64,000 bases of DNA. It comes from Amoebophrya sp. A120. Its lineage: Eukaryota > Protista > Dinoflagellata. Positions 4,743 to 61,199 of the stretch are shown here, in pieces. The notes beneath the pieces were generated by a model that searched no databases, had not been told where the DNA came from, and saw only the letters and a program-made list of their open reading frames with translations. A program made the position numbers and the translations under genes. Position 1 is the first letter of the stretch. Every line of letters starts with the position of its first letter. The DNA is taken from NCBI GenBank assembly GCA_905178155.1, contig CAJINV010000004.1, forward strand, positions 2,932,921-2,996,920, given 5' to 3'.

Positions 4743-7395
4743 TTACGCTGCACTCGTCGGCGTCGTGTAGTCGGCCTGCTCGTGGTCCTCTCCTCTTCCC
4801 GTCAACCCACCACCTAAAAAACCCGCACTTTTACTCCGCTGCTCACTCGCGAGCCGCTCTAGAATCTTCGACGGCGGCAAATTCGCGTCGACCCGGAGTT
4901 CCACACACAGCGTCTTCCAGAAGTTTTTCAGCTCATGTAGCCGAGCGAAGACCGTGTTCATCGCGGGCAACACCCCTTCGAGTTCCTTCACGTCAAACAG
5001 CTGCATGAAGTGCCGCACAATCTTCATGACCAAATCCTGGCTGCTCTGCAAGTCCACGTCGACCTCCGCGAAAAACTTCTTCGTTTGCAGAATTCGGTTT
5101 TCGAACTCCACCAATCCCTGCACTGCGAGCAGGATCTCGTCCCGCGTCTTCTCCGTCTGTATTTTGTCTTTGCGCATCCTCTCCAGCGCGGTCAGGGTTG
5201 CAGAAGGCATGTTGGGGTTGTTCTCGCTGGAAGATAGAGATGATTTCAGATTTTTATCGCCGGTTGTCAGTAAGTTCTTCCTGACCTTCTCTCCCCCGAT
5301 CAAACCGTCGATCGCCTCGTCAACAAGCTGGGCGTTCCGCACCAGCGACGGCCCGCCGAGAACCTTGCCGCCAGTGGACCGTCGGGTGGCCAGGGCGGCG
5401 AGAAGATCTGATAAAAATGCCGTAATATGACACCAAAAACGAAATAAAACTGCTAAATGACGTGAACGTGATTGGAATTTGGCATGCACGCATGCGCGGG
5501 AAACGAAGATGCCCAAATTTGTATTGCATAGCATGCATGATAGAGAAAATTTGTTACTTATGCATCATGATGATGGGCATGCGTTATACCTTCGAAGAAT
5601 TTGAACCAGTGTTCCAGGCTCATGGCATCGAGCTTCCACTTGCGGATTTTCTTTACCAGCATGTCTTGGTCGACGTAGTCGTTTTCCTCGTCCAGACAGT
5701 CCCCGAAATCGCGAAAGCGCGCCCGAAACGCGGCGACGCCGCTGCCCCCCGCGCCGCCGCCCGTCGAGCCGCCGGACCCGAGCCCGGCGCCCGCGTAGAT
5801 GCGGTAGATTTCCTCGGCAAACGCCCGGAGGTTGGGAAGATATCCTGTGCAAAAGTATCGCACTCGTAGTAATCCCAGTCATGCATTACAAATCTCCATC
5901 CCAAGGCAAAACAGCATGACAAATTCCATTTGCCATGCTGGGCCAACTTGTAATGCAATTACTACTAGTACGAGGACTACGATACTTTTGCAATGCATAG
6001 AAGACTTCGCTCCACCATCTTGCACATCATCTCGATCGCCTTCTCGCCCTCCTGCAGGTCGGCCAGCTTCAGCTGCATCAGCACCGCGGTACAGAACCGC
6101 CGCAGTTCGATCGGGTCCAGGTGCTCCAGCTCCGGCAGATTCTTCATTTTGCGCCGCCGGTTCAGCGAATGCAGCTTGCGGTCGGCGTCCATCATGGTTC
6201 GCGGGTCCGCCTTCTTCCACGTCTGTTTCACCTGCCCGGAGGGGTCGCGCGCTCGCTGCAGCTCGGCACCTAGGGGGAGATGCGAGGTAGATGCAGTAGA
6301 GTAGAGCTAGATTCTGCAGAACAGAATATGAACATACAAGAAGAGAAGACCGAAAGCTTTAGCTTGTGATAAGTCAGCTAGTACATGTACAACATGTTGA
6401 CTACAGCAAAACATGACTAGTACGCATGGTCGCGATGTCCCGATGCGAGGGTCGCTCGATCAATTCCTGCTCGAGCTGGTGGATAATCCGGTCCTTGGTC
6501 CGGATCTCCTCCAAAAACGTCGTGCGTTCCTCTTCCCACTGCTTCAGTCCGCGCAAATACTGCTCCCGCTCGTCCTGCAGCTGTCGGCGCAACGTAGCCA
6601 TCGTCGTATCGCGGTCCCGTTGCGGCCAATCGTCGCGGCTGGACGTTGCGGGAACGAAACCAGAGGAACATCCGGATGCCGTTTGGGTCGGAAGTTGTAC
6701 GGGGCCTTCTGTCACGTACACAGGGGCCGGGTTTGTTCGAGGAAGGGCTGATGTGTCGTAGGCGGTATACGCTGCTCCTGCGGTACGACCTTCATGGGCA
6801 TGGGTTTAAACTACACAATTTTTAGCGGCAGCCGCAACATTTATTTGGTCGAGACAGGCAATTCTTGCCACTTTTTTCGTGTCATGGAGACTGCACTGAA
6901 ATCGCTCCACCTTTTTTTGCTCTACTGTACTTGATGAACATACACATGGATGACATAAGTACCTGAAGCACCGCCGCCCCCAGATCCTAGGCCTGTTTGA
7001 AGGTAAGACCCTCCTTGTGCCATAGCTGCACTTCCCGACGACATGGTGTAACCCCTGGTCGGAGCAGCGCCGGCACTCGCAGCAGAAAGCGGCACAGCTG
7101 CCCCCGCCTCCCCACCTCCGGCCGGAAGTGCAGTGCCTGTAGCTCCTCCAGCACCCTGTGGTATTTCTTGCCCTAGAAGTTGCTGGCGCAATTCGAATTC
7201 AGGCGTGATTTGTGTGAACTCCGTGCCCCGGTGGGCGTATTCCTTGGCGTACCGAAGCCGCTGCCGCTCCAGCACCGCGGCGATTTCGGGGTCATCGCGA
7301 AACGAGGACTCATCACTCGACGAACTACTGCTGGATGGCGAAGAGCGGTCGCTTTGAGTCGGCGCGGGTTGTCGTTCTTGCGGTGCAGTAGACAT
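4743..7395 (-). CDS. CEP70-like centrosomal coiled-coil protein (multi-exon)
   Basis: C-terminal IVRHFMQLFDVKELEGVLPAMNTVFARLHEL resembles the CEP70 C-terminus. In-frame joins across GT-AG introns 6778-6962, 6270-6423 and 5408-5589 and introner 5841-5999 (VERS-LPNLRAF). Confidence 0.75.
5841..5999. mobile_element. Introner, family A (159 bp)
   Basis: tatcctgtgcaaaagtatcg...cgatacttttgcaatgcata inverted ends; direct repeat gaaga at 5836-5840 and 6000-6004; removal restores the CEP70-like frame. Confidence 0.93.
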
Positions 7396-12391: not shown

Positions 12392-15300
12392 CTACGAGGC
12401 CCCGGAGACCGGTTTCACCTTCGTCCCCGTCACCATCACTCTGGTCGGATCATTGTCCAAAACCGACAAATTCCCGTTCTAATATGCATTGCAAAAAGCA
12501 TCGTACTAGTACAAATTGCAATGCAAATTGGTCCAGGAGAAAATATCCAACTTGTGATGCTGATTTCCCTTCGGCGATAGATCTGTCATGCATGACCATG
12601 ACCGCGATTAGTACGACTACGATACAACTTTTGCACAGGATATCGAAATCGACTCGGCGATCTGCTTGGTCGCAGTGTGAATCATGGGGTTGTTCCAGTG
12701 GCAGAGAGTAGCGATGGAAGGATTGTTGCTGCAGTTCTTACTATCCAGTTTCGCACACAACCGCTCGTATTCCGCTGCAGTCATGGGCTCGCTTCCATGA
12801 TTCGCTCCTTCATTTGTTGAAGAACCACCCGAGGCCGTAGAGTGTTCTGCGAAGAGGGTCAAGCACCGCAGGAAGCCGCCACCATGCGCATAAGCCAGGT
12901 CCTGGACGACGGTGGTGTAACCTGTGATGGTCATGGTGCGTAAACAGCTTGCTCTAGTATGAGAAACAAATGTGGGATTATTACGCAGTAGTACTCCTGC
13001 ACCACAATTAGGCTGCCATGCAAGTGCAACAACTCGACGGCATAACAAACTTGCGAAGATATTCATATTCGGGTGTCATCCTAATCTTAGTATTCTCTTA
13101 TAGTCTTCTTGATGCACATGCAGCGTTTGCGTTGTAGTAGTTTGTGTATTTTCCTTTCCATTTATCCTTCATCTACTAAAGCACTATACCTTCCTTCTCC
13201 AAAATCCCCTGCAAGGTCGGGCACCGGGGCGGAATGATGGCCAACCGCTTTGCCTTTTCCAACAGGTTCGCGCAGTTGCGCTCGTCGACCAGAATGGAGT
13301 TCAGCGCAAACGCCATCCACTCCTGCTTGGGAATCAGAAACACCTCGTCGAAGATATAACCTGCTCAGCTGTTACAATTATCTCAAACGTTAGAATAGAA
13401 TATGAAAATCTATGATGCAAGAAGTGCATGATCTAGCGAAATCTACTGATAGGGTTGCGCATGACAAGTTCCGGAGCCCTAAACCCCACGACGATCTGGC
13501 GAAATTTGTATTGCAAAAGGTGGAACGCTGTGCGAATCTGTCATGCTCATCATGCAACACAAATCTCAGATTCTATTGTAACGTTTGAGATTGTAACGTT
13601 TGAGGAGGTCATAGAACACCTCGCTCCGCAGTTTCTGCAGCGACGCGTCGGTGAGAACCTGATCGCCCACACACGCTTTCCCGTATGAAAGTGCACGACT
13701 CCCCTTCCCCCTCATTTGTATTGCATGAACAGCAACTCAAGCGTCAGCAAGAATACAGGTTTTGCATGACAAATTTGGGTAGGCGTGTAGTGCTATTTGG
13801 GGCCGCCAGAACTTATCATGCAAACAGTGCCAAGAGCCCAGGCGTAAATTAGGCATTTTGCATGACAAATGAGGCCGAGGCGGAGTTGTGCACTCTCATA
13901 TCCCGTTGAACAGGGAAAGAATCGCCAGGTCTTGGTGGTAGCCGTGGGCCTTGTCCTTGGCCTCCACGATGATCACCTCGTCCGGAAAAGAATCGATTTT
14001 CAGCACGTCCTTCGCCAAGGTGATCACGTCTTGGTACGCGTTCTTGTCCGACCGACTGCTGTCAAACCCGAGTAACACGTTCTTCTTTTTCTCCGAAGAA
14101 GTTGTCACTTTCACCGACACCAGGTCCGCCATCCCCTCGAAGGTCTTCGCCAATTCGAGCGGAAACCAGCCGAGCTGCAACGCTACCGCCCGCATGAACG
14201 GGTTCTCCAGTTGCCGCTCGAGCATGCGCGGGGATTGCACGATGAAAACCTCCTTGTTGTCCAAAACGGGGGATTTCCCGAGGTACAGCCCAAGATTCGC
14301 CAAGTAAACGGCGTCCGCCATGCTGCTGATCAGGGAGTCAAACACAGACTTCACTTTCTTCTCGATAAACGGCTTCTGGATTCTTGCGTCGTCGTCGGAT
14401 ATTAACACTGCGAGGGACGTGCGGTTCTCGATCTTATTTTCAAGAACATCCTCATCTGCGATATTAGAAGTCGAGTAGTTCTTCGTCTTCGTCACGAGGG
14501 AGTCCGTCTTGGCCCGTTTGCGCGGCGGCTCCTCAAGAAGCAGAGCAGAAGTCATCACTTCGTCCGAGCTCGGTGAAGAACTGCTGGACAGAAACGCAGC
14601 GGCATGGTCACGTTTGGTGGAGGACGCGCGGGAGCTGCAGCTGGTCGTCGAGCGCGTTGAGGTGGAGAAGGAAGCCTTCCGGAACGTGTCGGCGTCTGTT
14701 GCGTTTTGGTTAGTGCCGGACGACGAGAGACCGCCCTGTAACTGCTCCTGGTTTTCCTTTTCCTCCTGCTCATCGTAGTTGTGCTTCTCGTTCAGCCGCA
14801 GAATCGCTTCGACCACCTGCTTTTCCAGTTCCGGACGCGCCTTTTTCAGCTTAGAAGTAGTGGACGAAGCCATGCTGGGAGAAGAATTTGAATTCATCTT
14901 TGGCGAAATAGCAGTAGAGCCTCCGGATGAAACACCACTGTTCTTGTTCGAAGACATCCAGTGCGCTCCCAGCGTTTTCACAATCTCGGCCTTTGCACCC
15001 TCCGAAAAGTAGTTGCCCCGAATCCCGGCCAGAATCAGGTCCAGGGGGAAACAGGTCTGCATCGGCTGGATTGCCTTAACGGTGATCGATGAAGCTCCTC
15101 CTTCGCCGCAACTAAAGCCTCCGCTTGATGTTAACGTCGCGCTGTCATTTTCACCATTGGCGTTGTTCTTCATCTTCTTTGGGCTTTTTGCGCTTGATGC
15201 AGTCGTGGCGGTGCCCTTGACCTTGTCCTGCATGGAAGAAGTAGAAGTAGAACTTTTAGTACTATCCAGCGCGAAATGGCGACTGATCGTGCGGTGCAGT

Positions 15301-17270: not shown

Positions 17271-17869
17271 TCAGTTGTACTTGCAGAGGCACCCCGGAAT
17301 CCCGCGATTGCAACCCGCCGGCCCCGTTCCGCACGCGTTAATGTTCAGAGCGGGCATGAGGACCATGGGAAACAACAAAAAGCACAACACCGACCCCGCG
17401 CAGATGAGGAGCAGCATGGAGGCGCTGCTGTTCCCGTGCAGGAGGCCGCAACAGAAATAGCCGCGGTGGTCGTCGTCATCGTAGGTGGTGTAGGCATACC
17501 TATCCACAGGAAATTTTCCGCACACGTAGAAATGCAGTCTCTGCATGAGAAAACTTGACTTCGATCCTAGTTTAGCATGGCAAGTTTTACGCTCCAAATT
17601 GGTGAAATTTGTGATGCATTTCGTACATGTAAGGGAAATTTGTATTGCATAGTACCCATAGTCGTCGTACACCACACGCGGCCCTCCCCCGCTTTTCCAA
17701 TGCCCGTGCTGGCAATCGTGGATCAAGCACATGAGGCACAAGAGCATCGTGACCAGGAAAATCAGAAAAATGGACATCATGCAGCACTGGTGTTGCAGCC
17801 ACCAACCGTAGTAGCCACCCAAGGTCACCACACCGCTACTGGGGTTGGAGACGCGCTTGCCATTTTCAT
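17271..17869 (-). CDS. Small membrane protein with two hydrophobic segments, Cys-rich
   Basis: Two TM-like stretches in ORF 17271..17831, extendable to ATGs at 17863 and 17869; contains introner 17501-17651. Confidence 0.6.
17501..17651. mobile_element. Introner, divergent family A-like (151 bp)
   Basis: tatccacaggaaattttcc...ggaaatttgtattgcata; direct repeat atacc/gtacc; internal tgtgatgc and gcatggca motifs. Confidence 0.8.
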
Positions 17870-18021
17870 CGACCTGCGACGTCAGATGAGGCGGCGTGCC
17901 ACAGCACCTGTTAGAAGATCAAGATTTGGGTGGGCATCTTCGTGCAATAAAGTCGTGGTGGTCTTTATCATGACAACTAAGTATATTCATTCACATTACC
18001 CTTCTTGAATCTTTTTAATCT

Positions 18022-19970: not shown

Positions 19971-22900
19971 CTATCGTCGCTTTTTCTTAGCGGGCCTGGA
20001 AGATGCCTCCACGAGCTCCTCATCGTCATCGCTTCGGTCTTGCCGACGACGCCCTCGCTCCCGATCGCGGTCTCGTCGGTTCGTAACGTCCTCTATCTCG
20101 TCGTCGTCGTTGTCTTTATTTTCGTCGGCTGAGCCGCCTCTAGTTCGGCCACGGTCCCGCTCTGATCTGGTGCCGTTATTCCTTCTACTGCTCTTGTCTC
20201 GGCGTTCTCGTTTGGAGGTTGTCGTGTTTCTGTCCTTTTCGTCCTCTCCACCGCTTACTATTTCATCTGGCCTGTCCTGTGTCGACCGCCGGTCTCGCCT
20301 GTCTGCTCGCTCTCGTCTTTCTTCACGAGGGGAAACCTTATCACCTCCGCCCCGACGCTTGTTGTCCTTTTCGTCCCTACTTCGTGGACGAGATCTCCGG
20401 TCTTCAGCAGCGTCACCCCGACCACCCCGTCTTTCCCGGTCCCTGTCACGCCGATCGTCGCGCCGAGATCGCGAAGGGGCACGTGGTCTTTCCCGGTCGT
20501 GGTTCTCTCCACCTGCTCGTGGCGACCTTCTATCGCGGTTCTTGTTCTCTCTTTGTTCCCGATCGCGGTCTTGATTTCTTCGTTCTTTCTCCTTCATGTC
20601 TCGTGGTCGTTCGACAAGAACTTCATCTTCGCCTTGTTCCTCGTCCGTTGAACGTTTATTTTCTCCGGTCTTGTTTTCTGGGGTACTACGGTCGTCCCTA
20701 CGACCCCCTCCCCGTCGCGCCTCCCGGTCCCGCTCCCGCTCCCTCTCCCGCTCCTTTTCCCGCTCGCTTCTACTCACCGCCTCCTGAATTTTCCTCACGC
20801 GCTCCTCGACCTGCTCCTTGAACCGCGTCGGCCACGGCGCAATCACTGCGGGGAGAAACATCTCGGACTCTTTCTGGAGGAGCAGTTCGTAGTTGTGTTT
20901 CCCCAGTCGCCGAAGTAGCTTTTTGGTCAACGTCTTCCAGAAAGATTTTTCCACCTGGGGTATCTCGTTGGAGGTGGTCCCATCCTCGGCGGAGGAGTTG
21001 TCGTTTTGGTTTTTGTCGTTAATGTTCATACTTTCCTGTCGCTGCAGTTGCTCGTCCTGGAGAAAGTTTCCCACGATCATACCGAGTTCCAGCATTTGCT
21101 TCATGGACAGCTGGTTCTGCTCCCGCTCGAGTTCCAACCGCTTCCTCGTAACTTCGTCAACTTGTTGGTCCTTGTCCGCCTTCCGTTCCTTCCTGTCTTC
21201 CTCCTGCAGCAAAGACCAGCTGGATTTCATCTCCGTCAGCATCTGGTCCCAGAACGCCAGCAATTGGTTCAATTCCTTGCGTATTCTGTGCAAAAGTATC
21301 GCACTCGTAGTAATTATCGCAGTCATGCATTACAAATCTCCATCCCAAGGCAAAACAGCATCACAAATTCCAATTATCATTTTGAGGTAATCGTAATTTG
21401 TATTGCAGTTACTACTAGTACGATACTTTTGCAGTTCATATTGCGCAGATCCGCGGACCGCATTTGGAAGTTTATCGTGGAAGACAAAAGCCCTTCCGTG
21501 TAGCAAAGGAGCTGCGGAAGCGGTAGGGACGAAACCCGGTTTTGCACGTCCTGGCTGGCGGCCTCGAAAAATTGCACCACTTCCAGGGGCATGTCGTCCA
21601 GGGAAAGCGCGCCACAAACACTGTTGCAAGCGAGCAGCACCTTGGTCAGGTCCCTGAGAGGAGTGAGGAGGAAGGTTAGAGGTAGTGCTAGATGTTTTTG
21701 ATGGTCGTGACAGATTTTTTTGAGGGAACAAGGCAAAGAATTCACACAAAAAAAGCTATAAGCCTATCATAAAGGCGACGACGTTCTTCTTGACTTGTTT
21801 GTTCTACTTCATCCAGCGGCGCAAGAAGGAATGATAAATAATCAAGCCAAAAAAACCGTAATCTCAAGTACTTTCCCGATGAAAAGTCGGCGACTTTGAC
21901 TTTCCCAAACGCGGTCACGAACGCGCTTGTCAAATGCGGTCGCACCTCCGTGTCCAACAGCGCCTCACTCTCCGGGTCGGTCGCCAACCGCGCGAAGGCC
22001 TTGGCCAGAAGGAACAGGAGCTGACTCACCTCGTTGGTCTTCAGCGTGCTTTTGATGTGCATTGGTGCCGCTTTCGCGATGTCGGTTAACCGTACCCGAC
22101 TTAACCGCACCGACTGGCTGGCGGCCTGCGCCAGGTGAATCAGCGCGGGCGGCGTGGCAAGGAAGGGTGAGACGTCGTTCAGAATATTTGCCGTCGCTTC
22201 CTCGGGCGCCGTTTCGCGATCCAGGTGGGCGGCGACCCCCAGGGCAAGGACTTCGGCAAAATCGTCCTTATGCAGCTGGCCACGTGAAAACTCCACGATG
22301 CAAGCGTCGACTAGGGTGGGGATCTGTCAAGGGTAGTAGTTTCGTGGAGATGTTTATTTTCAATTTTATCATCGATTATGCACAAAATCGAACTCGAAGT
22401 AGTCAAAGAAAAGATTAGCATTAGTTTCGATCGTGCAAAAAATTGAAGTCCAAATTCATTATTCATCGGGTGAAAAGCAAACATCCATCGTATAAAGTAC
22501 CTCAGCCACGCAGAGCAGGATGTCTCGCTTTTTCGGGCTTAGCGTTTCTTTGGGAAGCTTCTGCAGCAGCGCCCGGCCGACCGTCTCGACAAAGAGCGGC
22601 ATCTCCATTTTCCTTGCGGTTTTCACCACCCCTAGTAGCTTTTCCGTCGAGCTGCCACTAATCGCGTCCGCGCACAACACGCTCAACTGCGTGTCCACGT
22701 CCGCGGCCTTCAATGGCAGAGTGAGCAGCACTTCCAGCTCCTCAATGCTCGCAATCCGCCAGTACTTGAGCAAGGTGGTCGACACCGTGTCACTACTGCC
22801 GTTCGAAAACGCTTGATACGCCCCGTCTAGCTTTTTCGCAAACAGCTCCGCGAGCTTCTCCCGCACTTTCAGTTTCGCCTGACTCAGGTTCTTATCCTCG

Positions 22901-25106
22901 ATGCTGTTGATCAGTAAATCGAGGGTGACAAACCGGTGCAACTCCAAACTCGGATCGTGGAAGCAGCTGTCAACGATCATCGGCAGAGCGGTGAGTAATT
23001 TCTTCTGCGCCGTCAGTTTGTCCACCGCGTACTGAATGTTGTCGCTGCTGGAGGTAGATGTTGCAGAAGTAGATACTGGTCCTCCTGCTTCGTTAGAAGT
23101 TGTGCCGCTAGTACTAGCACTACTCCCCGTATCCTTCCACAGCACCATCAAGCACCGCTCGACAGTTTCCAAGTGCAGCTTTTCCAGCCCGCTTGGATCC
23201 GCCTCGGCGATCGGGCCCGCTAGGTCGGTGCCCTTCTTCGCTTTTCGCAGCGCGTGGGCGAGCTGCTCGTCCCGGGTACGGAGCTTCACCTTCCCGTTGC
23301 TGTAGTACCACTGTTGCCAGTGCGCGTCGAAGTAGGTCTCGAAATCCTCCACGTCCCACACGGACGTGCCCAGGATGTTCCGGAAGTACATCGCAACCGA
23401 CTCGTGGGTCCGCAACCGGTCGAGCTCCACGTAGCCGTGTTCGTCCTTGGAGAGGTCCTTCATGCTATCGCGAGGAAAAATCCCCCCGCACCATATTGAA
23501 ACGGAAATTTGTGATGCTGATTTGTGACCACAAATCAGCTTTGTCTTGCGTACAAGGCAAACGGCACCCATGTGCCGCATTGTGCAGCCAGTCTGTCATG
23601 CGTTTTCGCCTATGTCAGACTTGTTTCTCATGCGCAGCTGCAAGCCGGATGCGTGTCCAAAATGGCCTTAGAATATGCCGACAAGCTCTTGCTGCAATAC
23701 AAAGCTCATTTGTGTACACAAATCCAACAACACAAATTGTCTTTTGCGTATGGGGTGGGGGCTTTTTTCACTTTGATACATGCTGGGAACCAGGACCTCC
23801 TCCATAGTCACATACTTGAACATCGTGTCGTATTTTACCTGATAGTGGACCAACATATAACTTTGATGAAGATCATGTGGCAATGCTAATGGCAGCTCCT
23901 ACATGATGTTGAAATTGGTTTTGTAACTACAACTACAGGCTCAAGATCTACAAGTAGAGAAGCACTACTTATTTCAGCGCAATTTATACAAAAATCGAAA
24001 TTTATACCAGCATGAAATCGACGCTGGTTTTCTCCGCGTCTTCCATCTGTTTGATGACCCGCAGATGGTTGGGCTCTTTGTACGCTAAATACGCCCCCGG
24101 GTAGTAGGCGGCCTCAAAGCGGAAGGCGTTGGTCATGGTCGGGGAGGGTACCGCGATGAAGTTGATCAGGTTCCCGAGTTGCGAGCTCGTCAGCTGCAGT
24201 TCGGATTCGAGAACCTCATCCGTCAATTCGCTAAAGGTGAGGTTCATTCCGCCGGAAAATCCCACCGCCGCGGTCGCGGCCGGGCGGATGCGGCACATGT
24301 TGTTCACCTCGGGCAGCCAGTACAGATTGAATTTTGTTTTTTCGAAAAAGGGGAGAAATTCCGCCTTCACATCCTCCCGGGACTGAACGAACAGGTTGCT
24401 GCCCTGGTAACGGATGAATTTCTGCGAATTCCCCAGCGGACAGAGCATGAACTCCTTCGGGATGGCCATCCGCGGCGCGATGCCGGAGGTGGGGAGGGAG
24501 ACGCCATTGCGCTTACGCTCCAACGCAGCGATCTGCTCGTCGTAACTGTAGTTTTTTTCGTTGTGGGGAGGGAATGAGGAAATAGGATTTTTTTGGACAT
24601 TCTTTTCGACGCGTTGAAACGTTCTTGATATCCGCGCTCATCTTGCATAAATCACCATGTGCCAACAGTATCACCAGAACACGGTCACAGAGAGATGTAG
24701 TCTCGATCAGGATTCAGGTCACGTTTATGATCAAAACAGATTTATGCAACAAAAATACAGAACAAATGTATCAGTTGTATAAGTAGTACGCCTGCTTCTT
24801 GGCCGGGTTGCTGAGTGTTTCGTACGCGTTGTTGATATCTCGGATCATTTCATCCGCCTTTTCCCTCTCCGTGGGGTGTTTGTCCGGGTGCCACTTGATG
24901 ACCAATTTTCGGTAGCTCTTCTTGATGACCTCCGGCGTAGTGGACTTGTCCACGCCGAGGACCGCGTAAAAGTCCAGCATTTCGCTGTTTTCCGTTTTCG
25001 GCTTGTTTTTTTGCTCGTCTTGCTGGGATGAAGCCCCCGCCGCGTCTGGGTCTTGGTCATTTGACCCGGTCGTGGCAGGCTTCTGTTGATCTGCTGTTGT
25101 GCTCAT
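19971..25106 (-). CDS. DnaJ-domain protein with AbfB/CBM42-like region, helical region and R/D/E/S-rich tail
   Basis: J-domain (DFYAVLGV...WHPDKH...INNAYETLS) and FRFEAAYYPGAYL. In-frame joins across GT-AG introns 24546-24789, 23839-24007, 22324-22500 and 21654-21871 and introners 23466-23778 and 21282-21440. Confidence 0.72.
21282..21440. mobile_element. Introner, family A (159 bp)
   Basis: tattctgtgcaaaagtatcg...cgatacttttgcagttcata; direct repeat ttgcg; close in sequence to 5841-5999; the join gives DLR-KELNQ. Confidence 0.93.
23466..23778. mobile_element. Introner, family F (313 bp)
   Basis: tatcgcgaggaaaaatcccc...ggggcttttttcactttgata with ~90-bp imperfect inverted arms; direct repeat catgc; the join gives VPSM-KDLS. 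Confidence 0.88.
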
Positions 25107-28496: not shown

Positions 28497-31400
28497 TCAA
28501 CACCACCTGCCCAAATCCGCTTCCGTCTTGACCCCGTACCCCTTCAGCGGGATGTTCATCAACGGTTGAAAATCCGCGAACACGTCCCCGACGTAACTCG
28601 CGTACGGATCTTCTTGCTTCCAGTTCATCCGCACCAGCAGCGGCTCCACCACCGCTGCGACTTGTGGGAACGCCGAGCGCAAAACCGTTTCGAACTTGAC
28701 GCGGTCCGTAACCTCGCGGTCGTGCTGGTCGGTTGCCAGGTACACGTTGTTGCTCAAACACCAGTGCACCGGCGAGCGTTTGCGGACGTAGCTGATCAAC
28801 TTCGCCGCGGTGGCTTTGTCATTCTCAAAGTTGTCCTTCAGACTCACGTATCAAATGCAAAAATGTCTGGGTCTGGAAGACTACGAGATTTGTCATGCTT
28901 GTCTGGGATGACCAAAAAGTTTGTGATGCGTGTCCTAGAAGAGACGATTTTGCCTGTCATGCAAAAACGCAGTTTGTCATGCGAAAAACGCAACACAAAG
29001 AAGCGCAGATATTTCTCATGCTTGACTGTGCATGACAGAGCATTCCCTAGTCCCAACGCAGCATCACAAGTTTCCAGACCCAGACATTTTTACATTTGAT
29101 ATCACGGCGACGTCGCACAGCAGCCGCTGGTTCGCATGGTGCCGCCAGTCGTAGGGGGCGTGGAGGATCGTGTGCACCGCCTCACGGGACTTCTCCGGAT
29201 TTTGCACGGAGAGATCCAGGTAGTTCAAATACTCCCCCGCCATCATGGCATTCATCGAGGGAGGTGGGAGGTAAGAGTCTGACTTCGACGAGGACCACCT
29301 CGATGTCGTCGTCGTATCGTTATTGTTCCCCCCGCCGTTATTTTGTACTATATCCCTACTTCCAAACACCGGCAGTGGCACCGCGATGTCGTTCACAATC
29401 CGTGCCACTTGCTTCTTCACTTCACTGTGCTGCTGCTTTTTTGATAACCGCGAGCTAGATTTGCTGCGGTGGTGTGCTGTTTTTTCCAAAAGTCCGCTTC
29501 TTTGTTGATGTATCATCTCAAACGCCTCCCCGTACTTTTTCTCAGCCTGTTTCTGGTTTTTGAAGTTGTAATCTAGATACCGACCTTTCATAAACACGAC
29601 GAGCGGATCTCTCCCACAAGTACTCGCGAATTGCTTCTCCAAGGCGTCCATCAACGCAATACCGATCTGCTTCAAGTGCGGACTTTTCTCCCGTGAGTCG
29701 GGGCTGAACCACATCTGCGCCAGCTCCGCGAAGCTGGCACAATCGGCATCCGACTCCTGAATAATCGCGGCCCAGTAATCTTCGGAGAGCAGGGACTCCT
29801 CTAAACTCAGGGTAGAAGTGAAGGAGTCGAGAAAAAAAGGGAAGGTGGAGGAGTCTGCCAATACGCCACCGCTCGTGGAGGTGCTCTTTTTTGCTTGTTT
29901 TCGTCGTTTCTCCCTCTTCTTCTCATACTTGAGCCGCTCTTTGCGCTCACGAACCAACTGCTTCTCGATGAACTTCTGCATCCGCGGCCCGCGGGTTGTT
30001 GTAATTGTCTGCGTAGTTCGTGTCGGAGGCGCTGCTCGTCGTGTAGTTCCCCCGCTCGATGACGGCGCGTCATTATTCCGGCTTGTCTTGACATTTTCCA
30101 CCTCACCGTCGATCGCACTGCCATCGAGAGCACTACTGGAGCGCGGTGGACTTTCAGTCGCAATAGACGTCATCTCTTCGTCAACTCCCGCTGAGTCCCA
30201 GCCGAGATCATCGTCGTCCTCCCTGCCACCTCCAGAAGCAGAGGACCTTGTCGTAACAACCCGCCGATACGACCGGTAGTTCCGCTGGGAAGTTGTGCTT
30301 GCAGCACTTGTTGAGGAAGTAGTTGTGGAGCTGGTTGCGGAGGGTTGCGGAACCGGTATTGATCCACCGGAAGGAGCTCCGACTTCACTACTTGGATTGT
30401 TCACAGTCTGCACGCCCTCGTCCGGGGAAACCCGTTCAAAAAGCGAATACGCCGTGTTCGCAAAGCGGAACCGGAAGTGGAGGGGATTGAAGAACAGGCT
30501 TCGGCAGACCAGGGCAAACTTATGACAGGGCACAACTCCCCATCCCCTTCCCCCTCATTTGTGTTGCATGAACAGCAACACAAGAAACAGCAGAAAAGCG
30601 GCTTTCGCATGACAAATCTGCATGCGGATTGTAGTACTATTTGAGGTTTCAAAATTTGTCATGCTAGCAGCGCTTACGAGCAAGGCGCGAGTTTGGTATT
30701 TTGCAAGACAAAGGAGGGGGAGGGGGGGTTGTGCACTGTCATAAAACTGGTCCACTTTCTCCCTTTCCCCCGTTTCCGCGTCTAGTACTTTCCCAAACTG
30801 CTTTTCCGTGTTCCTGTCACAATTCGAGCCTTTGATTTTCGAGGAATACTCCTCGTCGACGAGGAAGGGCGTGAAGAAGCACCGCCGGTTGTCAATCACC
30901 ACGAAGCGCGCGTGCAGCGGTTTCATGATTTGGTAGGAAAACACCTCCGGGGTGGTGCAGTGGTACAGACCGGAGTAGAGAAACTGCACCCGGCGCCGCA
31001 ACTCCTCCGACTCGTAGTGGGGGTGCACGATGAGGGGCGCCTTGGTGAACTGCCGTAGGGCGCCCAGAGTGCTCATCGAACCGGCTATGGAAGTAGAAGG
31101 CCTTGGGCTCGACGGTAGAGCGATGGATGTGGTAGCGGGAGAGGGCCGCGGTACTATGTTCGCGCTTCTGCTTGTCCTTGCTGGCTGCAACGCAGTTGAA
31201 GTGCTTGGAATCACGAAATCAAACCCGTTCTGATTCCACATGATTCGCTTTATTTTCCCAGAGGTCGTGTGAGTGTGCAGACGATTGACATGCGCGTGCT
31301 CCTGTGCAGCTGCAGCCTCAAGAGCAGGAGAACCAACATTAATACCTTCAAGCTCTTCACGACTATCGACAATGCGCTGATTAATGTACCCAGCGAGTTC

Positions 31401-38780: not shown

Positions 38781-41700
38781 TTAGAAACGGTTCATCTCTA
38801 CACTGCCAACTGAACAAATGGTGCCGGGGTCTTTCTTGTTCGTACTACTCATCTGCTCGAGTTGCGGTCGTTCTCCTTGTTCTTCATCTAGCAAGAACCC
38901 GTCTATGTCGACCGTTTCTTGGGAATTGATCCTGGTAAAAATATTCAGCTGGCTTCTACTTCGGGCTGCTCCTGCACTGTGTACTAGCTCCTCCAACGAA
39001 GCAGATCGTGCAGGCACCACCCGGCCCGAAACGTGCGACATCACCGTGGCCGACTCAGCAAGATCCTCAAGAACAGGATCATGCTCGTCCACTATTGTGC
39101 TGCCTTGCATCTGGATTTGCTGTTGATCTACTAATCCCGTCGGGTAGAAGTAGTTTCCGTTCCTCTGCAGTTCTCCTTCTTCCACCTCCGCCGAGCTTTT
39201 TTTCTTCCCTTCCAGTTTTTCCAGCCGCTGGCGCAGTTCGTCTACCTCGGCCTGCAAGTCATCGACGGGGTCCCCGAAAAACTCCGTCACAAACTCCCCG
39301 ACGCAGGACGCCCGACGGATGCCCATGAACAGCAGAATGCAGGCGTAGACCACCATCACCTCCACATAGGGAAACGTCGCCAAGACGTTCGGCAAGGCGG
39401 TCTCCCAGGTCGGGCACTTCACCTTCTGCACCAGCCCAATGCCGTGGCAGTCTGGCATGCGGGTCCTGCGGGGTTCTTGTTGTGGGTTGGAAGAACTAGT
39501 ACCTGAAGCAGAAGCTGGAGATAAAGTCGAAAATGAATCATCTCCATTTGAAGATGACTGTCGCCCCTGCTCCCCATGGTCTAGCCGCCTGCTTGTCGTA
39601 CTACTAGAAGAAGTACTAGTTGAGGGGTAGACATAGGTTGTTGTAGCAGGTGGCACCCCGAGCAGCTTTTGCATTTCATAGGACTTGAATTCGTTCAGCA
39701 CGTGGGTTGGTAGCCGCTCGGAGAAACAATCCTTCCCTTCGTTATACCAGGAATCGATCGCCCCATAAGACTCGCACGTCGGGCTCGGAACGGCGTTGAT
39801 TATATCATCAACTCCCGGCGTCAACACATTGTTCTCGGAAAGAACAACAAAATCTTCTTGTGCCGTATTTTCTGTTTGATATCGGTCGGTATGCAGCTCG
39901 TGTTCGAACGGTTCCTCAGAAGGTGCGAAGGTGGTGCTGGTGGTCGCGGAGACTTTATTGTCTTGTTTGCTACCTTCGCTACTCGCCTCCGCCTCGTCGG
40001 TGATCCCCGAATAATTGGAGGCTCCGCCCAGCACTCCCGCCCTGCTTTCCCGTGCCTGTCGCGCCTCTGCATCCGTGGTGCAGTGAATTTGACAGAACAG
40101 CGTGCGATATCGAGCGCAAATACATATCTGGAGCAGGAAAAATGGAAAATTTGCTTTGCAATTCGCGGACCACGCACATCATGGTCATCTCGTCTGGAAT
40201 GCACAAAAAATTTTGCGAGACCTTCTTGTTCATGATGCCTCTCCAGCAAGAGCAGCCTGCCTTTAAAAGCCTAGAAGAAATAAACGGACAGCAACTTTTG
40301 GGATTCGTGCAATACAGATCATGTGCTTTTTGTGAAGATCGGAACTACTTCGGATGACAAGCCGCATCCTTCCAGACCCAGATCGATTTTTGCAGCGCAT
40401 ATGCGGAAATGCGTTTCGTCGTCGCCTTCGAACCAGAAAGGTTCCAGCATCCGCACCGAGCAAATGCTCCAGCCTTCGTGCGCCTGGCGGAAGTTGCCGT
40501 AATCTCCCGCGTTCATGCCACAGGCGCGGCCGACGTGGCTGTGCGGCGGGAGGTCACCGTGATCTACTTGTGGATTATTTTCATTTTCCGGAGGACCGTC
40601 TGTGTCTGTCGTGCTTGTATTGTCGATAGAAGTACTTGTTCTCTCAGACTGCTCTGTCTCGCCGCTACTAGTACCACCTGCAAGATCATTATCATTTTGC
40701 AAGGCCGCTGCATCAAGAACCAGTCGTGCGTCGATCGCGGAAGTGGTCGTGCTCGTGCTGGATGAGCTGGCTTGTTTCCCTACGGCGGAGGAGGGTAATT
40801 CAGCATGATGTAGCTGAGGATGGACACCAACATGATCATGCGCTGTTGCACTTTCTACACTTTTGCTCGTGTGGTCCTCCGCGAGAATCCGCCTCCTGGT
40901 TCTGTGCCGAGTAAGAACCTGGCTTCTCGTTGCTTGCGCATCTACTGCTTCGGCAGTCGTGGTACCAGGAACCGCCGAGGAACCCGGAGCCGGCGTCGTG
41001 CTACTACCGATGGAGAGCGTGCTGCTGCTCCCGTGGTATCCGTAGATGGAAGAAGCGGTGGTGGTTCCCAAGAAAGCCAGTCCCGCCTCCATCTGGCAGG
41101 TTTGCATGTTCTGCATTGCAAAGCTATCGCACTAGCATAAATTGCATTACAAATTTTGGCAAGAAGACAAGCGGAATTTGTAATGGTGTTTTACCTTAGA
41201 AGGGAGATTGCAACTCGTACGAGCTGCACGATATTTTTGCACAGGATACATGTAGTGGCGGAACAAAACCAATACGCTCGAGCCGAGCGCGCCAACCAAC
41301 GTGATCGCGAACGGCGCTAATTGCCACCACTTCAGAATTTTCGCCGCTTTCTGCTGCTTCAGTTGGTGGTGCATCCGGTAGGGCAGAAACGTCCCGAGCA
41401 CCGAGAGAAACAGCCGGCTCAAGCATCCGATCGGCTTTTTCTGTTTTTTTCGTGTGGTTGATTTTGATGCATTTCTAGAGGTCGTCATATCGTCGTCGTG
41501 TTTTGCGTCCGAGGCTGCAGACGGGCCTTCCTCTATGATCATACTGGAAGTGCTGGACCGTGAAAGGCCACGGCGCGGCCGCACAGAAAGCTGGCGACCT
41601 TTATCGGGGGATAATGATAAATTCTGGCAGTTTCTCCTATTTTTACTGCTGCCTGAGCCTCGCTCGTCAACATCTGCAGGCGGTCTGCTGCTGGGTGGAA

Positions 41701-47500: not shown

Positions 47501-49017
47501 GGTGGAGCGGTCGGTGCTGCAGCTGGTGGGGGCTTCGATGCATTCGAAGTCGAGGTATTTTTTTTGTTGCTTTGTCGTGTGTTGTTACTGTTCTTCAGAT
47601 CTTTTTGGTCCATTTCGTCTTCTTCATCGTCGCTGCGCATATCGGCCCAGCGCTTGCCCCCTGTGGACGGCTTATTGTTGTCTTTGGTCGTCGTGGTCTT
47701 CTGTGCGGATCCAGCAGTAGGAGCTGCAGTACTACTACCTCCGTTCCAGGTGCTGCTTTTCGCGCCGCCGCCGCCCGGACTGGGTTTACTCACCATTTTC
47801 GCGACTTTGTCGATGTCCGATTCGTCGACACCGGAGGTGATCCGCATCTTGGACGCCGACGCCGACTCGCTTTCCGGCTGTGTGGCCAGCCGCTTCGGCT
47901 GTTTTGGAGGAACAGCTGCTGTACCAGTAGTTCCACCGGCCGCAGTATTTGCTTTACTATTTGCTACAACCGTGGTGGAGCTGCTGCTACTGCTTGAGCT
48001 CGTCGCCGAGGCGACGCCCGATGCAGGTTGTTGTTGACCAGTCCCACCTATCAAATGCAAAAATGTCTGCGTCTGGAAGAGTGCAAGATTTGTCATGCAT
48101 ATTTCTCATGACCCATGATGTCTGTAATGCATGACCTAGCATCGCAGACTTTTAGAGGGCTTCCTGATGCACGTTCCGCATGAGAAATGCCCTGTCCGCG
48201 TCGTGCAAATTGTCCCGCTCTTGGTGGTCATGCAATACAGATTTTTTTAGAGTCCAAAAACAGCATCACAAGTTCCAACCTTCCAGACCCAGACATTTTT
48301 ACATTTCATACCACCTATAACCTTCTTGTTCCCCGCAGCTTGTCCGAAGCTGCTCCGCGAGCTGCTCTTGCTGCCCGCCAGGCGATCGCTCTCCAGCTGC
48401 TCGTCATTCTGAAACCGCTCTTCCACGCCCCGAAAATTCAACGCTGCGTTGTTTAGCGACCGCTCCAGCTCCAGGTCGGCCGCGTCCAGATCGGTGCGCT
48501 TCTTGTAGGAGTAGCTGTCCGCATTGTCGCGGATCTGCAGCTGGGAAAGCCCGGGCGTGGGCTTGTTCAGGTTGATCTGGGCGGGTGCTGTTCCTGCAAC
48601 AGCTCCTCCAGCTGCAATTCTAGATGTTGACGTAATTCCGGACTTATTTGTTGCCCCTCCTGGTGCTCCGGGTCCCTTTTTGTTGTTCTCACCAGGATCG
48701 CGACGGACGCTGTTTTGATTTTTTTTATATCCGTTCGAGCTTTTTCTCCTTTTTGGATGGAGATTCAATCAATAATCCTTTGTTCTTTTCATTCATTGTT
48801 CTGACACTTTATCCCTTCTTCACGTTTTATTTCTCATTCTCACGCAGCGTGGCCGTGGCTTACTGCGCTTTACAACTTGTCATGCAGTTTGTAGTGCAAA
48901 AGCAGCATCGGAAGAAATAAAGTATTCGTTAACATGTCGAAAATAGAAGTACAAGAATCCATCCTCGTCGCTGTCTTCGTCACTGGTGTAGTCGGCCCAG
49001 TTCTTTTTCGCCGTCAT
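44536..49017 (-). CDS. Low-complexity protein with PAM2 motif and C-terminal SLBP-like RNA-binding domain
   Basis: Phase-compatible GT-AG introns 48710-48952, 47105-47234, 46764-46960, 46194-46484, 45069-45341 and 44652-44852, plus introner 48049-48310. PAM2 is STLNASAPAFIP; the SLBP-like stretch is KNLPEYKLYLADVPKERREEGHHPSTP..SNRQF..MRRWL. Confidence 0.68.
48049..48310. mobile_element. Introner, family B (262 bp)
   Basis: tatcaaatgcaaaaatgtctgcgtctgg...ccagacccagacatttttacatttcata; direct repeat ccacc; the join gives VIGG-TGQ. Confidence 0.93.
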
Positions 49018-54268: not shown

Positions 54269-56299
54269 TCAGTACAGAAACCCTTTTTCCGCCGCTGCTT
54301 GCGCGAGAAAATCCCGAACCAGTTGCATGTTTTTGTCGTTCAAAATCGAGACACAGCAGGTCGCGGTGGATCCCATCGGCGCGTGGTCCTTCAATTTGAA
54401 CTTTTCCCCCTCGACGCCCAAGTACTGGTCCGCGGCGTCTTGGTTCTCTAACGCGCACGCGCGCGACTGTCGCATCCGCTCGATCTCCCGCTCGAGTTCC
54501 TCGAGCACCATTCGTTCCGGCCGCGTCATCTTGTCCATCTTGTTCACGACGAGCAGCAGTTTCGCAGTGCTGAAGACCTGGGTGATCAGCTCCTTGTCCG
54601 TGAACAGGTCGTACAAAAATTCCGCGGCGTTCTTCAACTCCACCTTGTCCGTCATGAGAGTGCACAACTCCCGCTCCCCCTCATTTGTCACGCATACCCG
54701 ACTGCACCACATCGAAAACCTTTGCACCGTCGCTGCAAGCAGCTACGGCCGCAGGAGATCTAGGGTCAGAACCGCGAAAAGTATCGCGAGTATATCTTCA
54801 TTCCCGGGCACTAATATTATGATTATCTTTTCCTTACTTCTCGCTTACCGCAAATCGATTTGCTGCCCTCTGGCACTGTTTGCATGACAAATTACGGAAG
54901 ACCAAACAGTACTACTTTCGGCAGGTGAGCTTGTCATGCAAAGTCTCCAGGAGTGCTGGCGTTTGTATTGCAGCTTGTTCATGCCATACAAATGAGGGGG
55001 CCGGGGAGTAGTTGTGCACTCTCATATCCGTCCCGTCGATGACAAACAGGACGCAGTGCAGAGGCTGACTCCGATTCAACAGCTCCTGGCGGACGGCCGT
55101 GCGCATCCGCGGGTGGCCCGGACACTCGGTCAGCGAGATCGGAAAAGTTGGCTTCGTGTAGGAGGTTGTGATTTCATCTTTGTCCTCTGCGCGTGCTGTT
55201 TGTGTTTGTTCTGGTTTGCGACTGTTCGTTGGGCTCGTTTTATCTATTCCCGCGGTCGTGGTGGTCTCACTTGTGGCTCTATCCTGTGCAAAAGTATCGC
55301 ATTCGTATAAATGCAAGTCTTGCATTACAAATATTTTTCTTAAGGTAAATTAGCATGGCAAATTTCATTTCTCATGCTGAGAAAATTTGCATTGCATTCA
55401 TACGAGTACGATACTTTTGCAGTTCATAGGCTCCTCCTTGCCGGTGTTCGAGCTCGAAGCTCGCACTGGTGATTTTCAGACTGCTACCCACTGCAAATAT
55501 GTCTGGGTCTGGAAGAGTGCAAACTTGTCATGCATATTTTCCATGCCCCATGAGGTCTGCAATGAAGGACCTAGCATGACAGGTTCTGCGAAGTCTCTAT
55601 CAGGTCTATCCTGCATGACAAACTGCCTCTATCTAAACTTGTTCAAAAGTGGACACCTTTTGGTAACCATGCAACACAAATTTTTGCACGATCCAGACTT
55701 AGCATGACAAGTTCGCGTCCTTCCAGACCCGGACATATTTGCAATGCATAACTGCTCACCAGCTTCATTTGCTTTTCGTCGTCCCGGAGGGCAAAGAGCA
55801 GCGCCGTTTTTCCCGCATTGTTCTGCCCCAGAATCGTGACTTGTAAGCCTTTGCTACTTTTCCCGCCCCGGATCTTCGAGCCTGACCCCACGAGCCCGAC
55901 CGCGTACGCACCAGCCACGCTCGCGACGGAGGTGGTCAGCAGAAGAAAGAAAAGTGTTGGTGTAATAAACGGGGTCGGCTCAGGCTCTTCCTGCTCAAGA
56001 TCCGGAGATGAACCTTCTTGCACTTTGGTCGTCGTGTGCTCATCATTTTTTATCGCAGCAGCTTTCTTACTACCTCCAGTGTTCGTGGCTGTCTTTTTTG
56101 ATTTGTTAATCCCATCTTCATTTGTTGATGTCGAAGCTGCTTTTTTCGCCGCTCCTTGTTTCTTTTCTTTCGCCGCGACAAAGAGGGTGGGAAGCTGCGC
56201 TGTAATAAGAGTCTGCGTCGACGTCGAGCAGCCAAACAGAAGCACCCCGGCTGCGGCCTTCGAGAGTCGCGAGGACTTCATCTGCAGTTGGAAGAACAT
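54269..56299 (-). CDS. SRPRB: Signal recognition particle receptor beta subunit (Arf-like GTPase)
   Basis: TM segment, P-loop GQNNAGKT, ECPGHPRMR, FVIDGTD, AEFLYDL, NKMD and LEREIERMR. Reconstituted by removing three introners. Confidence 0.85.
54653..55026. mobile_element. Introner, family C, reverse orientation, with internal insertion (374 bp)
   Basis: catgagagtgcacaactccc...agttgtgcactctcata; direct repeat tccgt; the join gives DGTD-KVEL. Confidence 0.92.
55280..55428. mobile_element. Introner, family A (149 bp)
   Basis: tatcctgtgcaaaagtatcg...cgatacttttgcagttcata; direct repeat ggctc. Confidence 0.92.
55485..55750. mobile_element. Introner, family B (266 bp)
   Basis: tacccactgcaaatatgtctgggtctgg...ccagacccggacatatttgcaatgcata; direct repeat actgc; the join gives LVSS-LKIT. 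Confidence 0.92.
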
Positions 56300-57268: not shown

Positions 57269-60200
57269 TCAAAGTGCGAGATATTGCGACGCCGCCACCG
57301 GTGGCCCGACATCATCAACATCCTCCGTAGGAAGTAAATCTTGACCTTCACCGGTCGAAGCAAAACCTTCTTCCCTGGCCCGCTCCTCCCCCTCGTCTAC
57401 CACCTCCGCAAAAGACGCGGACTTTTCTTGCGCCGGCGCGTCGCCGTCTCCCCGCGGACGAGTCACCACTTGATGTTCCCCGAACGCGCGGAGCGAGTGC
57501 GCGTGCTGCACAGAGTCGCAGGTTTCTGCACTGTCCAGCAGAAAGCGAATTTCCCGTTTAAACGCGAGCATGCGCGAGGAGTCACTTCCCGCGAAGGAGA
57601 ACAGCGGAATCTGCGACTTTTTACTCACATACAGCACGTGCGCCGCCGTGTTGGTTATTTCTTGAGTTTTTGTTTCTTCAACAGCTTGTTCATTCTCGGC
57701 GTCTGATTTGAAGTCAGCTGCTTGTGCTTCCCCCTCCAAAAGTTCGGTTTCAAATTGCCAAAAACGGAGTTTCGTCCATGTTGCGCTGTTGGTGCTGCTA
57801 GAAGTGGTTCTTGCGCCAAGTTGAACTTCTTTCTTGATGTTCACGGTCACCCTCTCGTAGCCGGGCTTAACCACGCCGGTTTCTGGGTGTCCGAAGATCT
57901 GGTTTTGTAGTTCTTCCGCGTTTTCTATCAGGTGGCTCTCGATCTGGTACTTCAAATAGAACATGCCCAGCGGCGTTACGTCCCCGTAAATCTCGGCCCG
58001 CGGAAAGGTTCTAGAAGTTTTGGAAGTAGAAAGAACACCAGCAGCAGTGCTAGCCCCGCCGATTTCGATAACGGGATGACCTTCAAGTTTCTCACACACC
58101 CACGCACTCTTTGCCCCTCCGGACGATGTATCCTCGTCTTCGTTCTCAACTCGTGTACGACCTAAATTATCGTGTGCAGGATTTCCAGCACCAGCTCCAA
58201 CGTAGCGCAACACCCACATCGCCGCCTTTCCTGTCGGAAACACACTCTTCGTTGCGTGCGCGACGCGCGCGCCCTGGGTATCGTAATCGACAGCGCCATC
58301 GGGAGACACAAGGTCGCACTTCTCGGCGATGGTGTTTGTGTTTTCATCTGACATAGCACCGTGGTAGTGTTCGTGCAGCTCCCGCAGCATTTCCTTGTCT
58401 TCTTCAACCATTTGCAGCACTTCTTTGTTCTCCGGGTCTTTCGCTGCCATTTTTGCCAGTTTCTGCTTCAAGAATTCCAAATAACAACCATCCACCAGAT
58501 CCTCCTCCGGCGGCTGCCGCCACAAAGCGAGTTCTCGCTGCATGTTTTCCAGAAACGGAAGATTGGCGAGATTTTCCTTTTCGCCATCGGAGCCGGAGGC
58601 TTTTTTAGAAGAAGTTTGCTGCTGCATATTTGTAAACCACGTGAAGTGCCGCGTGTGCTTTTCAAGGAAGGAGCTTGAGCTACTACTAGCACTACTAGAA
58701 GCTGATGCACTGCTTTTTTCCACAAACTTCGGCTCGATTCCCAGTGCCTTTAACGCTTGGTCGCAGGGAGCCACCCAGAGATGCTTTTTGCAGTAGACCG
58801 ACAGGTGTAGATCCTTGGGCCCGTCTGTGAATTTTTTACAGTACTCCGGTTCGTAGTCATCGAACACTGCGTCCCACTTGCAGCAGGTGATCCGTTCGTT
58901 CTGAATGCCAAAGTCCGGGTACTGGAAGCCTTGGGTAAGCTGTTCCACCGTGTTCTGTACCGCCTTGTAGCTCTTCATCAGGGAAGATTCTTGCGCGGCG
59001 TAGTATAAGCCCCCAGCGCAGTAGCCGACCGGCAAGGGTTCTGCGTCCTCTTCATCCTTGGTCGGGTCGACCCACCCCCTCCCGACGCACTGTGCTAGTT
59101 CCGCCTTAATCAAGTCCTGCCACTTGGGGCAGCCGACGTTGTCGCAGTTCCCAAAATTTTTCGCGTCCACACTGTCGCCGCCCGGGTTCAAAGCGGTAAT
59201 GTACTCGTCCCCTAGCGCGTATGGAAGTGTCAGAATCGAAATTGACAAAATCGAAAAACTTGTGATGCATAAAATCAATACCAGTTGGAGCCTCAGTTTG
59301 CAAGCGGCGCATGACAAATTTCGGGAGCACCCAAATCCAGTCTGTCATGCTGTTTGGGCAAAGAATACTGCTCCTGTCGTGCTACTCTGGCATCGTATTG
59401 CATACCCCTAAACAGGCTTACAATCGGTCTCATTTCCCTGCTCCCCAATACAGGCCTCCAGTGCCCTACATTTTATGCATCAAAAATTTTTCGATTTTGT
59501 CGATTTCGATCCGGACACATCCATAGCGCGTACCAGGCGTGCGCCAGCTCGTGGCTCACCACCTCCTTCGCATCGGCGGAAATGGGCACGACGGCGAAGG
59601 TATCAACTGTAAAAATGTCTGGGTCTGGAAGATTCTGACACTTGTCATGCACGTTTTGCATGAGCGATGACGTCTGTGATGCATACCCCAGCAATACAGA
59701 TTTTCTGAGGGATTCGTGATGCCTATTCCGCATGACAAATTCAAATACCTCCTCAGCTTAGCAAAATTTGCATTCCGTTTGCTTCTCATGCAATACAGAT
59801 TTTTTTGGAATCTAAATACAGCATCACAAGTTGCATTCTTCCAGACCCAGACATTTTTACATTTGATAGAAGGCTCGGTCGGGCGCGGCCCGGCCGCCCT
59901 TGATGCTTTCGTCGTTGTGAAGCACCAGAATCGTCCATTGCTTCCAACCGTGGTTCGAGGGTCTGTGGTCGTGTGTAGTTGCGGTAGTATATCATTTTCA
60001 TTTTGATGATCGGATCTTTTATCATGATATTGTCATATTGAGAGCACTGATGCACATGCATTGAACAACAAGTCATAGTTTGGGTGCGCCGCAATGTCAA
60101 TTCAATACGAGGTTTTGACTTTCAAGCTACTTATCTTCATCTTTGAGTCTAGATCGAAAAGAGTCTGAACATAAAAATTACTCGCACGACGTCTTGACGT

Positions 60201-60925: not shown

Positions 60926-60932
60926 GATGCGA

Positions 60933-61184: not shown

Positions 61185-61199
61185 ACCAAATGCAAAGGC

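Follow-up and report, generated by a model that had tools for sequence, protein, structure and literature searches.

The window analysed here is a 64,000-nucleotide stretch of contig CAJINV010000004.1 from the dinoflagellate Amoebophrya sp. A120, interspersed with short introner elements that share a spaced sequence motif. Elements were called from inverted ends and a flanking 5-bp duplication, blind to that motif, and 17 were delimited in this way (16 by program and one added by eye). They measure 139–374 bp each and 3,952 bp in total, with TAT...ATA-type ends and a 5-bp target-site duplication (TSD). Exact copies of the motif, GCAWNACA or its complement TGTNWTGC, occur 59 times within these 3,952 bp (14.9 per kb), whereas the remaining 56.9 kb of positions 1–60900 contains 16 (0.28 per kb), an enrichment of about 50-fold. 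Among the 44 co-oriented exact pairs inside elements, 15 are spaced 31 or 32 bp apart and are spread over 12 of the 17 elements; when one mismatch per pair is allowed, 16 of the 17 contain such a pair. In 5,000 random placements no 2-bp bin ever reached the observed pair counts, the best bin averaging 3.2 and 5.2. A sequence-only reading of the window had listed 14 such pairs, and every one was recovered where that reading placed it, within a single delimited element, 12 with both sites exact and two with one mismatch (at 55353 and 23626). Further exact pairs were found in elements A2, G1 and C3, and further pairs with one mismatch in C1, D1 and A4.

The window copies belong to several families, numbered as in the larger data set described below. 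Family 0 is represented by B1 (28849..29101, TSD TCACG), with pairs 28891/28922 and 29030/29061, one per end and facing outward; B3 (48049..48310, TSD CCACC; 48091/48123 and 48232/48263); B4 (55485..55750, TSD ACTGC; 55671/55702); and B5 (59601..59868, TSD GAAGG; 59643/59675 and 59790/59821). The divergent B2 (40108..40401) has a family-0-like end and is the sole window element without a 31–32-bp pair, displaying instead degenerate sites 43 bp apart at both ends. Family 1 comprises A1 (5841..5999, TSD GAAGA; pair 5883/5914), A3 (21282..21440, TSD TTGCG; 21327/21358), A5 (55280..55428, TSD GGCTC; 55322/55353) and, in opposite orientation, A2 (12483..12642, TSD with one mismatch; 12553/12584), whose coding context gave no confident call, and A4 (41110..41248, TSD CATGT; 41113, one mismatch, with 41144). 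Family 5 includes C1 (13684..13900, TSD TCCCG), with an inverted site at 13717 and the pair 13732 (one mismatch)/13764; C2 (30521..30743, TSD AAACT), with an inverted site at 30560 and the pair 30575/30607, inside a Dpy19-domain gene; and C3 (54653..55026, TSD TCCGT; 54932/54964). The remaining families have one window copy each, namely F1 of family 4 (23466..23778, TSD CATGC; 23510/23542 and 23594/23626), D1 of family 6 (59220..59525, TSD GCGCG; 59343/59375, one mismatch), G1 of family 9 (17501..17651; 17610/17641) and E1 of family 10 (13355..13613; 13507/13539, with an inverted partner at 13554). The right terminal repeat of E1 contains a 15-bp tandem duplication (13575–13604), and the units of the terminal inverted repeats (TIRs) are internally repeated in families 7 and 10.

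The spacing and motif tests cover this 64-kb window and 612 kb of a second assembly. The latter was reached by scanning metagenomes with the family-B terminal repeat alone, the motif being unused, which returned 161 loci, all from assembly JACKZZ01, amounting to 612 kb after merging and biased to family 0. Elements in these loci are up to 93% identical to window copies, so that their source is taken as a close relative. Motif-blind calling yielded 448 elements versus 12 decoys with a shifted duplication; 433 with an end score of at least 10 were kept (15 left out), and these form 15 families of at least three copies plus a few singles, with a median length of 258 bp. Ends of the type TATS-N3-TGYAAAA are common to all families, the TAT being partly imposed by the caller, and open a TIR of about 30 bp in which positions 15–30 differ by family. 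Insertion shows no target-sequence preference. When TIR pairs were defined by repeats, free of the motif, 59 of 69 had an exact TSD of 5 bp, and TSDs of 3, 4 and 6–9 bp were absent (lengths 2–9 tested). The elements thus fit the traits of miniature inverted-repeat transposable elements, being short, multi-copy and non-coding (no Pfam match in long members), with TIRs and a TSD.

The 31–32-bp peak that the sequence-only reading had expected across families recurs in this second assembly. Motif density inside its elements reaches 14.8 per kb, and isolated motifs outside elements number 149 in about 500 kb (around 0.3 per kb), about the level of chance. An exact pair is present in 228 of 417 elements of at most 345 bp from the 15 families, with pair counts by distance of 5, 175, 70, 50 and 6 at 30, 31, 32, 33 and 34 bp, and of 63, 38 and 13 at 31, 32 and 33 bp once family 0 is left out. 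With one mismatch allowed and window copies included, at least a quarter of the members have a 31- or 32-bp pair in 13 of the 15 families. When a single member was drawn per family, 7.7 of 15 had the pair, compared with 2.8 in the best bin of the null, and none of 3,000 nulls reached 8.

Comparison of close copies suggests that the motif bases themselves are under selection. Across 342 of 354 nearest-neighbour copy pairs (12 below 75% identity were dropped), with the motif annotated from a third copy, motif bases displayed 0.058 substitutions per site versus 0.153 for other interior bases, 0.18 for the N base and 0.157 for the spacer, a 2.6-fold reduction whose p-values come out too small because the pairs are non-independent. 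The constraint ratio lies between 0.22 and 0.50 within each of the eight largest families and is the same for coding and other elements. Indels of at least 2 bp are also less frequent in spacers (0.47 versus 0.83 per 100 bp), so that spacer length is modestly constrained. Slowly changing motif bases around a free spacer of set length are, at the sequence level, the pattern expected of a protein site with a linker. As for when this selection acts, private changes rise from TSD-intact to TSD-mismatched elements, which we infer to be older, both at other bases (0.087 to 0.107) and at motif bases (0.031 to 0.043), and a split-half fit gives a post-insertion mutability of motif bases of 0.014 (0.004–0.024), against a neutral estimate from duplication mismatches of about 0.017–0.019 per copy. 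The constraint nonetheless persists in the shortest-branch quartile (ratio 0.40), and TSD-mismatched elements contain as many motifs as intact ones. On balance, these figures favour a model in which selection acts at transposition and the motif then decays, and continued constraint is also compatible with them.

The arrangement of sites relative to the ends and to each other points to helical geometry. End-facing sites cluster 32–34, 41–44 and 52–55 bp from the element end in 20 of 22 family-end units, with a phase of R = 0.69 at 10.5 bp over these 22 units, the two ends of one family not being independent. When periods from 7 to 16 bp were fitted to the 66 adjacent gaps that recur, 10.5 bp came out best, opposite sites being offset by half a turn, and this period remains significant without the 31–33 class. 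Peaks at two or four helical turns are minor, which makes the 31–32-bp interval more like a three-turn ruler than a free phase. The pair also belongs to a larger grammar, in which an inverted partner stands 6 or 15–16 bp upstream. Broader regularities were tried and set aside: a lattice of 10.5 bp for all sites is strong on all pairwise distances but is not claimed because the adjacent-gap test outside the main modules gave P = 0.07, and a strict alternating lattice of 15.75 bp is present in some families only.

How these elements may leave the message is best seen in the gene for the signal recognition particle (SRP) receptor beta subunit (54269..56299, minus strand), which is interrupted by B4, A5 and C3 as its first, second and third non-canonical introns. 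Removal of these three elements with one 5-bp duplication each restores a protein identical over 408/408 residues to the annotated A120 protein P0003, to which a window exon is 100% identical. No register at any of these three junctions provides GT-AG ends, and the orthologue from strain A25 aligns without gaps across two of the three. Among 361 testable elements, removing the element plus 5 nt leaves the frame open on both sides in 85%, compared with 68–70% for other lengths. A GT-AG register is available in only 18 of 264 elements at coding sites, and element lengths are distributed 87/76/101 over the three frames in these 264, erasing the 3n bias seen in the window (10/17). With GT-AG rare and lengths covering all frames, removal needs a non-canonical step. 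The coding strand could be called with confidence for 264 of 379 elements, and in these no family shows an orientation bias, not even family 3 (7:10), in which almost every site points the same way; both strands are used equally by sites (451 on the sense strand versus 517). Since elements lie in genes both ways, the motif most likely acts on DNA.

Other introns of the window also contain the motif. A minus-strand GT-AG intron at 5407–5588 includes a decayed family-13 remnant (5474..5554, 86% identity) with one exact site (5520), and a single exact motif occurs in four more canonical-looking introns picked by eye (6406, 13040, 44711 and 48878), which gave no blast hit to the element library. 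Introns with such relics may record introners turning into ordinary introns. The host genes called in window positions 1–60000 are all on the minus strand, matching the co-oriented gene blocks reported for this parasite; among 27 open reading frames (ORFs), Pfam gave confident names for Dpy19 and SRP receptor beta only, and Rfam returned no match across the window.

The description of the families as unrelated, on which the sequence-only reading had built, did not survive this analysis. The interiors of different families are, judging from alignments, close to unalignable: short blast hits link 49 of 105 family pairs, falling to 7 once ends and exact motifs are masked, and spacer cores are 34% identical between families versus 28.8% when shuffled. 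Part of this excess is explained by an inverted extra site within the spacer, which lies 14–17 bp upstream of either pair member and is common in families 0, 2, 4, 5 and 6, and by a palindromic overlap at 6 bp. Because ends and duplication length are shared, the families form one clan, and shared ancestry with a shared transposase is the simple account of the features found across them.

We propose, with a probability of about 0.63, that a single transposase, supplied in trans, binds the elements through their subterminal motif array. A shared DNA-binding factor is suggested by the cross-family peak, the selection on motif bases, 10.5 bp as the best period, the phase relative to the ends and the lack of strand bias, and to this extent the sequence-only reading is supported; its picture of unrelated families is not, in view of the single clan with common termini and TSD, and general phasing outside the main modules was not significant. 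Such a protein would read the terminal block (TATS, then TGYAAAA), occupy in tiled fashion those subterminal sites that share a face of the helix, first some 33, 42 or 53 bp in from the cut and then three turns deeper, and pair both ends to insert them with a 5-bp stagger. From the ends and TSD only, the enzyme would most likely be an integrase-type DDE protein (IS3/IS481/Ginger-like). Families would then be lineages that diverged, or that captured new interiors, with selection for mobility retaining ends, motif and spacing. The terminal repeats would guide a distinct step, indifferent to orientation, that takes the element out of the message.

Several observations weigh against this proposal. 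Inward-facing sites have no phase relative to the end (R = 0.25), the 10.5-bp phase of adjacent gaps loses significance once the 31–33, 6, 15–16 and 45–49 classes are removed (the P value given above), and element length shows no clear 10.5-bp period. The rest of the 417 elements have no exact pair, including all 13 members of family 7, and family 11 prefers 33 bp. No transposase or integrase family was matched by 225 ORFs of at least 180 aa from the JACKZZ01 loci, where Pfam returned host genes only, nor by any of 24 ORFs in long elements or odd regions of the window. Farhat et al. found no transposase in A120 and so rejected mobilisation by one (PMC7789003). The TSD of IS3EU/GingerRoot is usually 6 bp, versus 5 bp here (0/69 at 6 bp), which fails that definition. 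Finally, selection on the motif may continue after insertion.

This last point bears on the rival that a host or domesticated factor, bound to DNA, is needed after insertion and marks the element during transcription for precise removal at any junction sequence, with or without a role in mobility. Some special recognition step must exist, given the rare GT-AG registers and the use of all frames, and U1 small nuclear RNA (snRNA) went undetected in A120, as did a transposase (PMC7789003); the constraint on the shortest branches and the undiminished motif content of TSD-mismatched elements are likewise in its favour. However, motif mutability after insertion overlaps the neutral estimate, private motif changes rise in the older elements, coding and other elements are equally constrained, about half of the elements have no exact pair, and those in a canonical-like register are not depleted in motifs (29 vs 235, p = 0.72), leaving this explanation doubtful. 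Less probable again is that the motif binds an accessory or architectural host protein whose bending or wrapping of the element aids a distinct transposase, one that recognises the terminal repeats alone. All families share the motif but differ at TIR positions 15–30, so that several transposases could use one helper, and sites also occur in the middle of elements, with a precedent in the IHF of Tn7-like ends (PMC13632737). Nevertheless, the chance-level frequency of isolated motifs indicates that this is not a general host site, and the uniformity of TSD and terminal block speaks for a single type of enzyme.

The remaining alternatives appear far less probable. That the pair was inherited from one ancestral element and is now functionless would agree with the common descent evident in shared ends and TSD, with the excess spacer identity and with the short blast hits between families, yet the slow evolution of motif bases while the N base and spacer drift largely refutes such a relic, few family pairs still match after masking, and the spacer excess stems in part from the inverted site; we hold it very unlikely. 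A role of the motif in RNA, as a protein site or a terminal hairpin extension, is hardly to be expected either: in families 0, 4, 6 and 7 a fold-back could bring the outward-facing sites of both ends into pairing, but sites use the two strands equally, only 0.29 of family-0 elements have complementary mirrored N bases versus 0.45 when shuffled, and base pairing would not hold one sequence fixed across families. Terminal positions 4–7 are complementary no more than by chance in families 0, 1 and 4. Equally slight are the prospects of excision from DNA in some nuclei or life stage by a motif-reading excisase, as for the internal eliminated sequences of ciliates. It would suit the DNA-like geometry and the exactness with which an element and one TSD are removed whatever the strand or junction sequence, but element length shows no clear periodicity and this parasite is not known to have a germline–soma split. 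The elements are moreover retained in both assemblies, and published A120 introns were defined by RNA-seq against the genome (PMC7789003).

Beyond the transposase platform itself, a single transposase-derived protein might read the helically phased GCAWNACA array and both spread A120 introners and, regardless of junction or strand, mark each of them for exact removal together with one duplication, be it from the message or from DNA in some nuclei. We consider this extension unlikely, although if true a dual-role transposon protein would replace splice-site recognition in a genome where U1 snRNA is undetected. A120 holds tens of thousands of non-canonical introners whose mode of spread is described in the literature as unexplained. 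The uniform 5-bp duplication, the end block and the motif make it likely that some two thousand "families" are a single clan served by one machine; together, they narrow the search to integrase-type proteins and provide a defined bait for the protein. In themselves, binding sites near the ends are a usual feature of transposons.

The sequence-only reading had suggested a search for long elements carrying motif pairs and an ORF; no long element with a transposase ORF was found among orphan ends or the longest elements. Long members do exist in the JACKZZ01 loci (457–1,104 bp; L021:505-1608, L016:1535-2347, L030:632-1465, L032:10314-10770 and L061:3862-4492), and retain ends and motif sites around unrelated interior DNA, resembling Pack-type capture. 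In the same loci, a 111-bp element with TAT...ATA ends is nested in the end of a family-6 element (L017:1601-2032), and a C-5 cytosine DNA methylase domain is divided between two adjacent frames (L018:2635-6090; profile 1–78 and 81–322). Near the end of the window, a family-0-like left end with its first site at offset 41 (60933..61130) carries a 28-bp tandem expansion of motif-bearing sequence, its right end lying outside the window. The region 60933–64000 consists of these 28-bp tandem repeats with degenerate motif copies followed by a 93–97-bp satellite up to the window end, with no Pfam match in three ORFs, and is possibly a long element or an introner-seeded satellite. Immediately before it, at 60620–60930, short GC-rich repeats with units of 12, 11 and 10 bp form inverted blocks. 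A further intergenic region of about 1.7 kb (26380–28100, 65% GC), with no match in the second-assembly loci and no Pfam match in five ORFs, is likely another mobile element or repeat. Scans with end or motif patterns gave no match in viral contigs and two isolated matches without arrays in prokaryote genomes, taken as chance.

The elements correspond to the introners published for the same strain and probably share their non-canonical junctions (Farhat et al. 2021, PMC7789003; Gozashti et al. 2025, PMC12130899). As described there, inverted repeats start with TAT, followed by seven looser bases and then at least three A, and short direct repeats flank them. The published account gives inverted repeats of 8–20 nt, direct repeats of a variable 3–5 nt and about 1,954 families, whereas the duplication here is uniformly 5 bp and accompanied by a constrained, spaced subterminal motif; no internal motif is described in the accessible text. 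Among 50 of the 58 A120 rows in file sd07 of PMC12130899, the annotation "5-bp TSD, TA/TA termini" is given to an 808-bp family containing integrase-like ORF pieces, and most other A120 families are listed as unknown TIR elements. These ORF pieces could also be captured retrotransposon sequence, because long members in the JACKZZ01 loci carry unrelated interior DNA.

Comparison with known superfamilies suggests a non-autonomous TIR transposon clan resembling the integrase-type group (IS3EU/GingerRoot, IS481EU and Ginger2). TA...TA termini, the lack of a target consensus and the TIR structure are shared with IS3EU/GingerRoot, although GingerRoot TIRs measure 100–150 bp versus about 30 bp here (PMC10045372, PMC6839031). 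The IS481EU elements of Trichomonas have TNT...AYA ends and TIRs below 50 bp, as do the TAT...ATA elements, but TSDs of about 4, 15 or 25 bp in place of a uniform 5 bp (PMC10045372). Ginger2/TDD elements make TSDs of 4–5 bp (5 bp in TDD-4 and TDD-5), in line with those found here, but end in TGTNR rather than TATS (PMC2836005). Because no definition fits in full, we regard the elements as working like this group without filing them as members.

No description of the motif or of its spacing was found in the literature examined, nor did the sequence-only reading know of one; the search covers accessible parts of PMC7789003 with its supplement text, PMC12130899 and PMC11282704, while the supplement figures (S19–S25 of Farhat et al., S9 of Gozashti et al.) and Roy et al. 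2023 on Polarella fall outside this scope and may bear on the claim. The cross-family motif, spacing and end phase therefore appear new, the elements and subterminal sites as a kind being already known. The nearest parallels in organisation are Muta1, whose subterminal repeats bind the transposase (PMC5499845), and Tn7-like ends, where spaced TnsB sites do so with IHF as an accessory (PMC13632737). There, as is proposed for the A120 elements, a terminal catalytic block is combined with several protein sites further inside, and how many there are, how they are oriented and how they are spaced is important. Those systems belong to other superfamilies, and binding was shown for them whereas here it is proposed from sequence. 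Unlike in either of them, in A120 one motif is kept across many families whose interiors are unalignable, and the elements double as introns.

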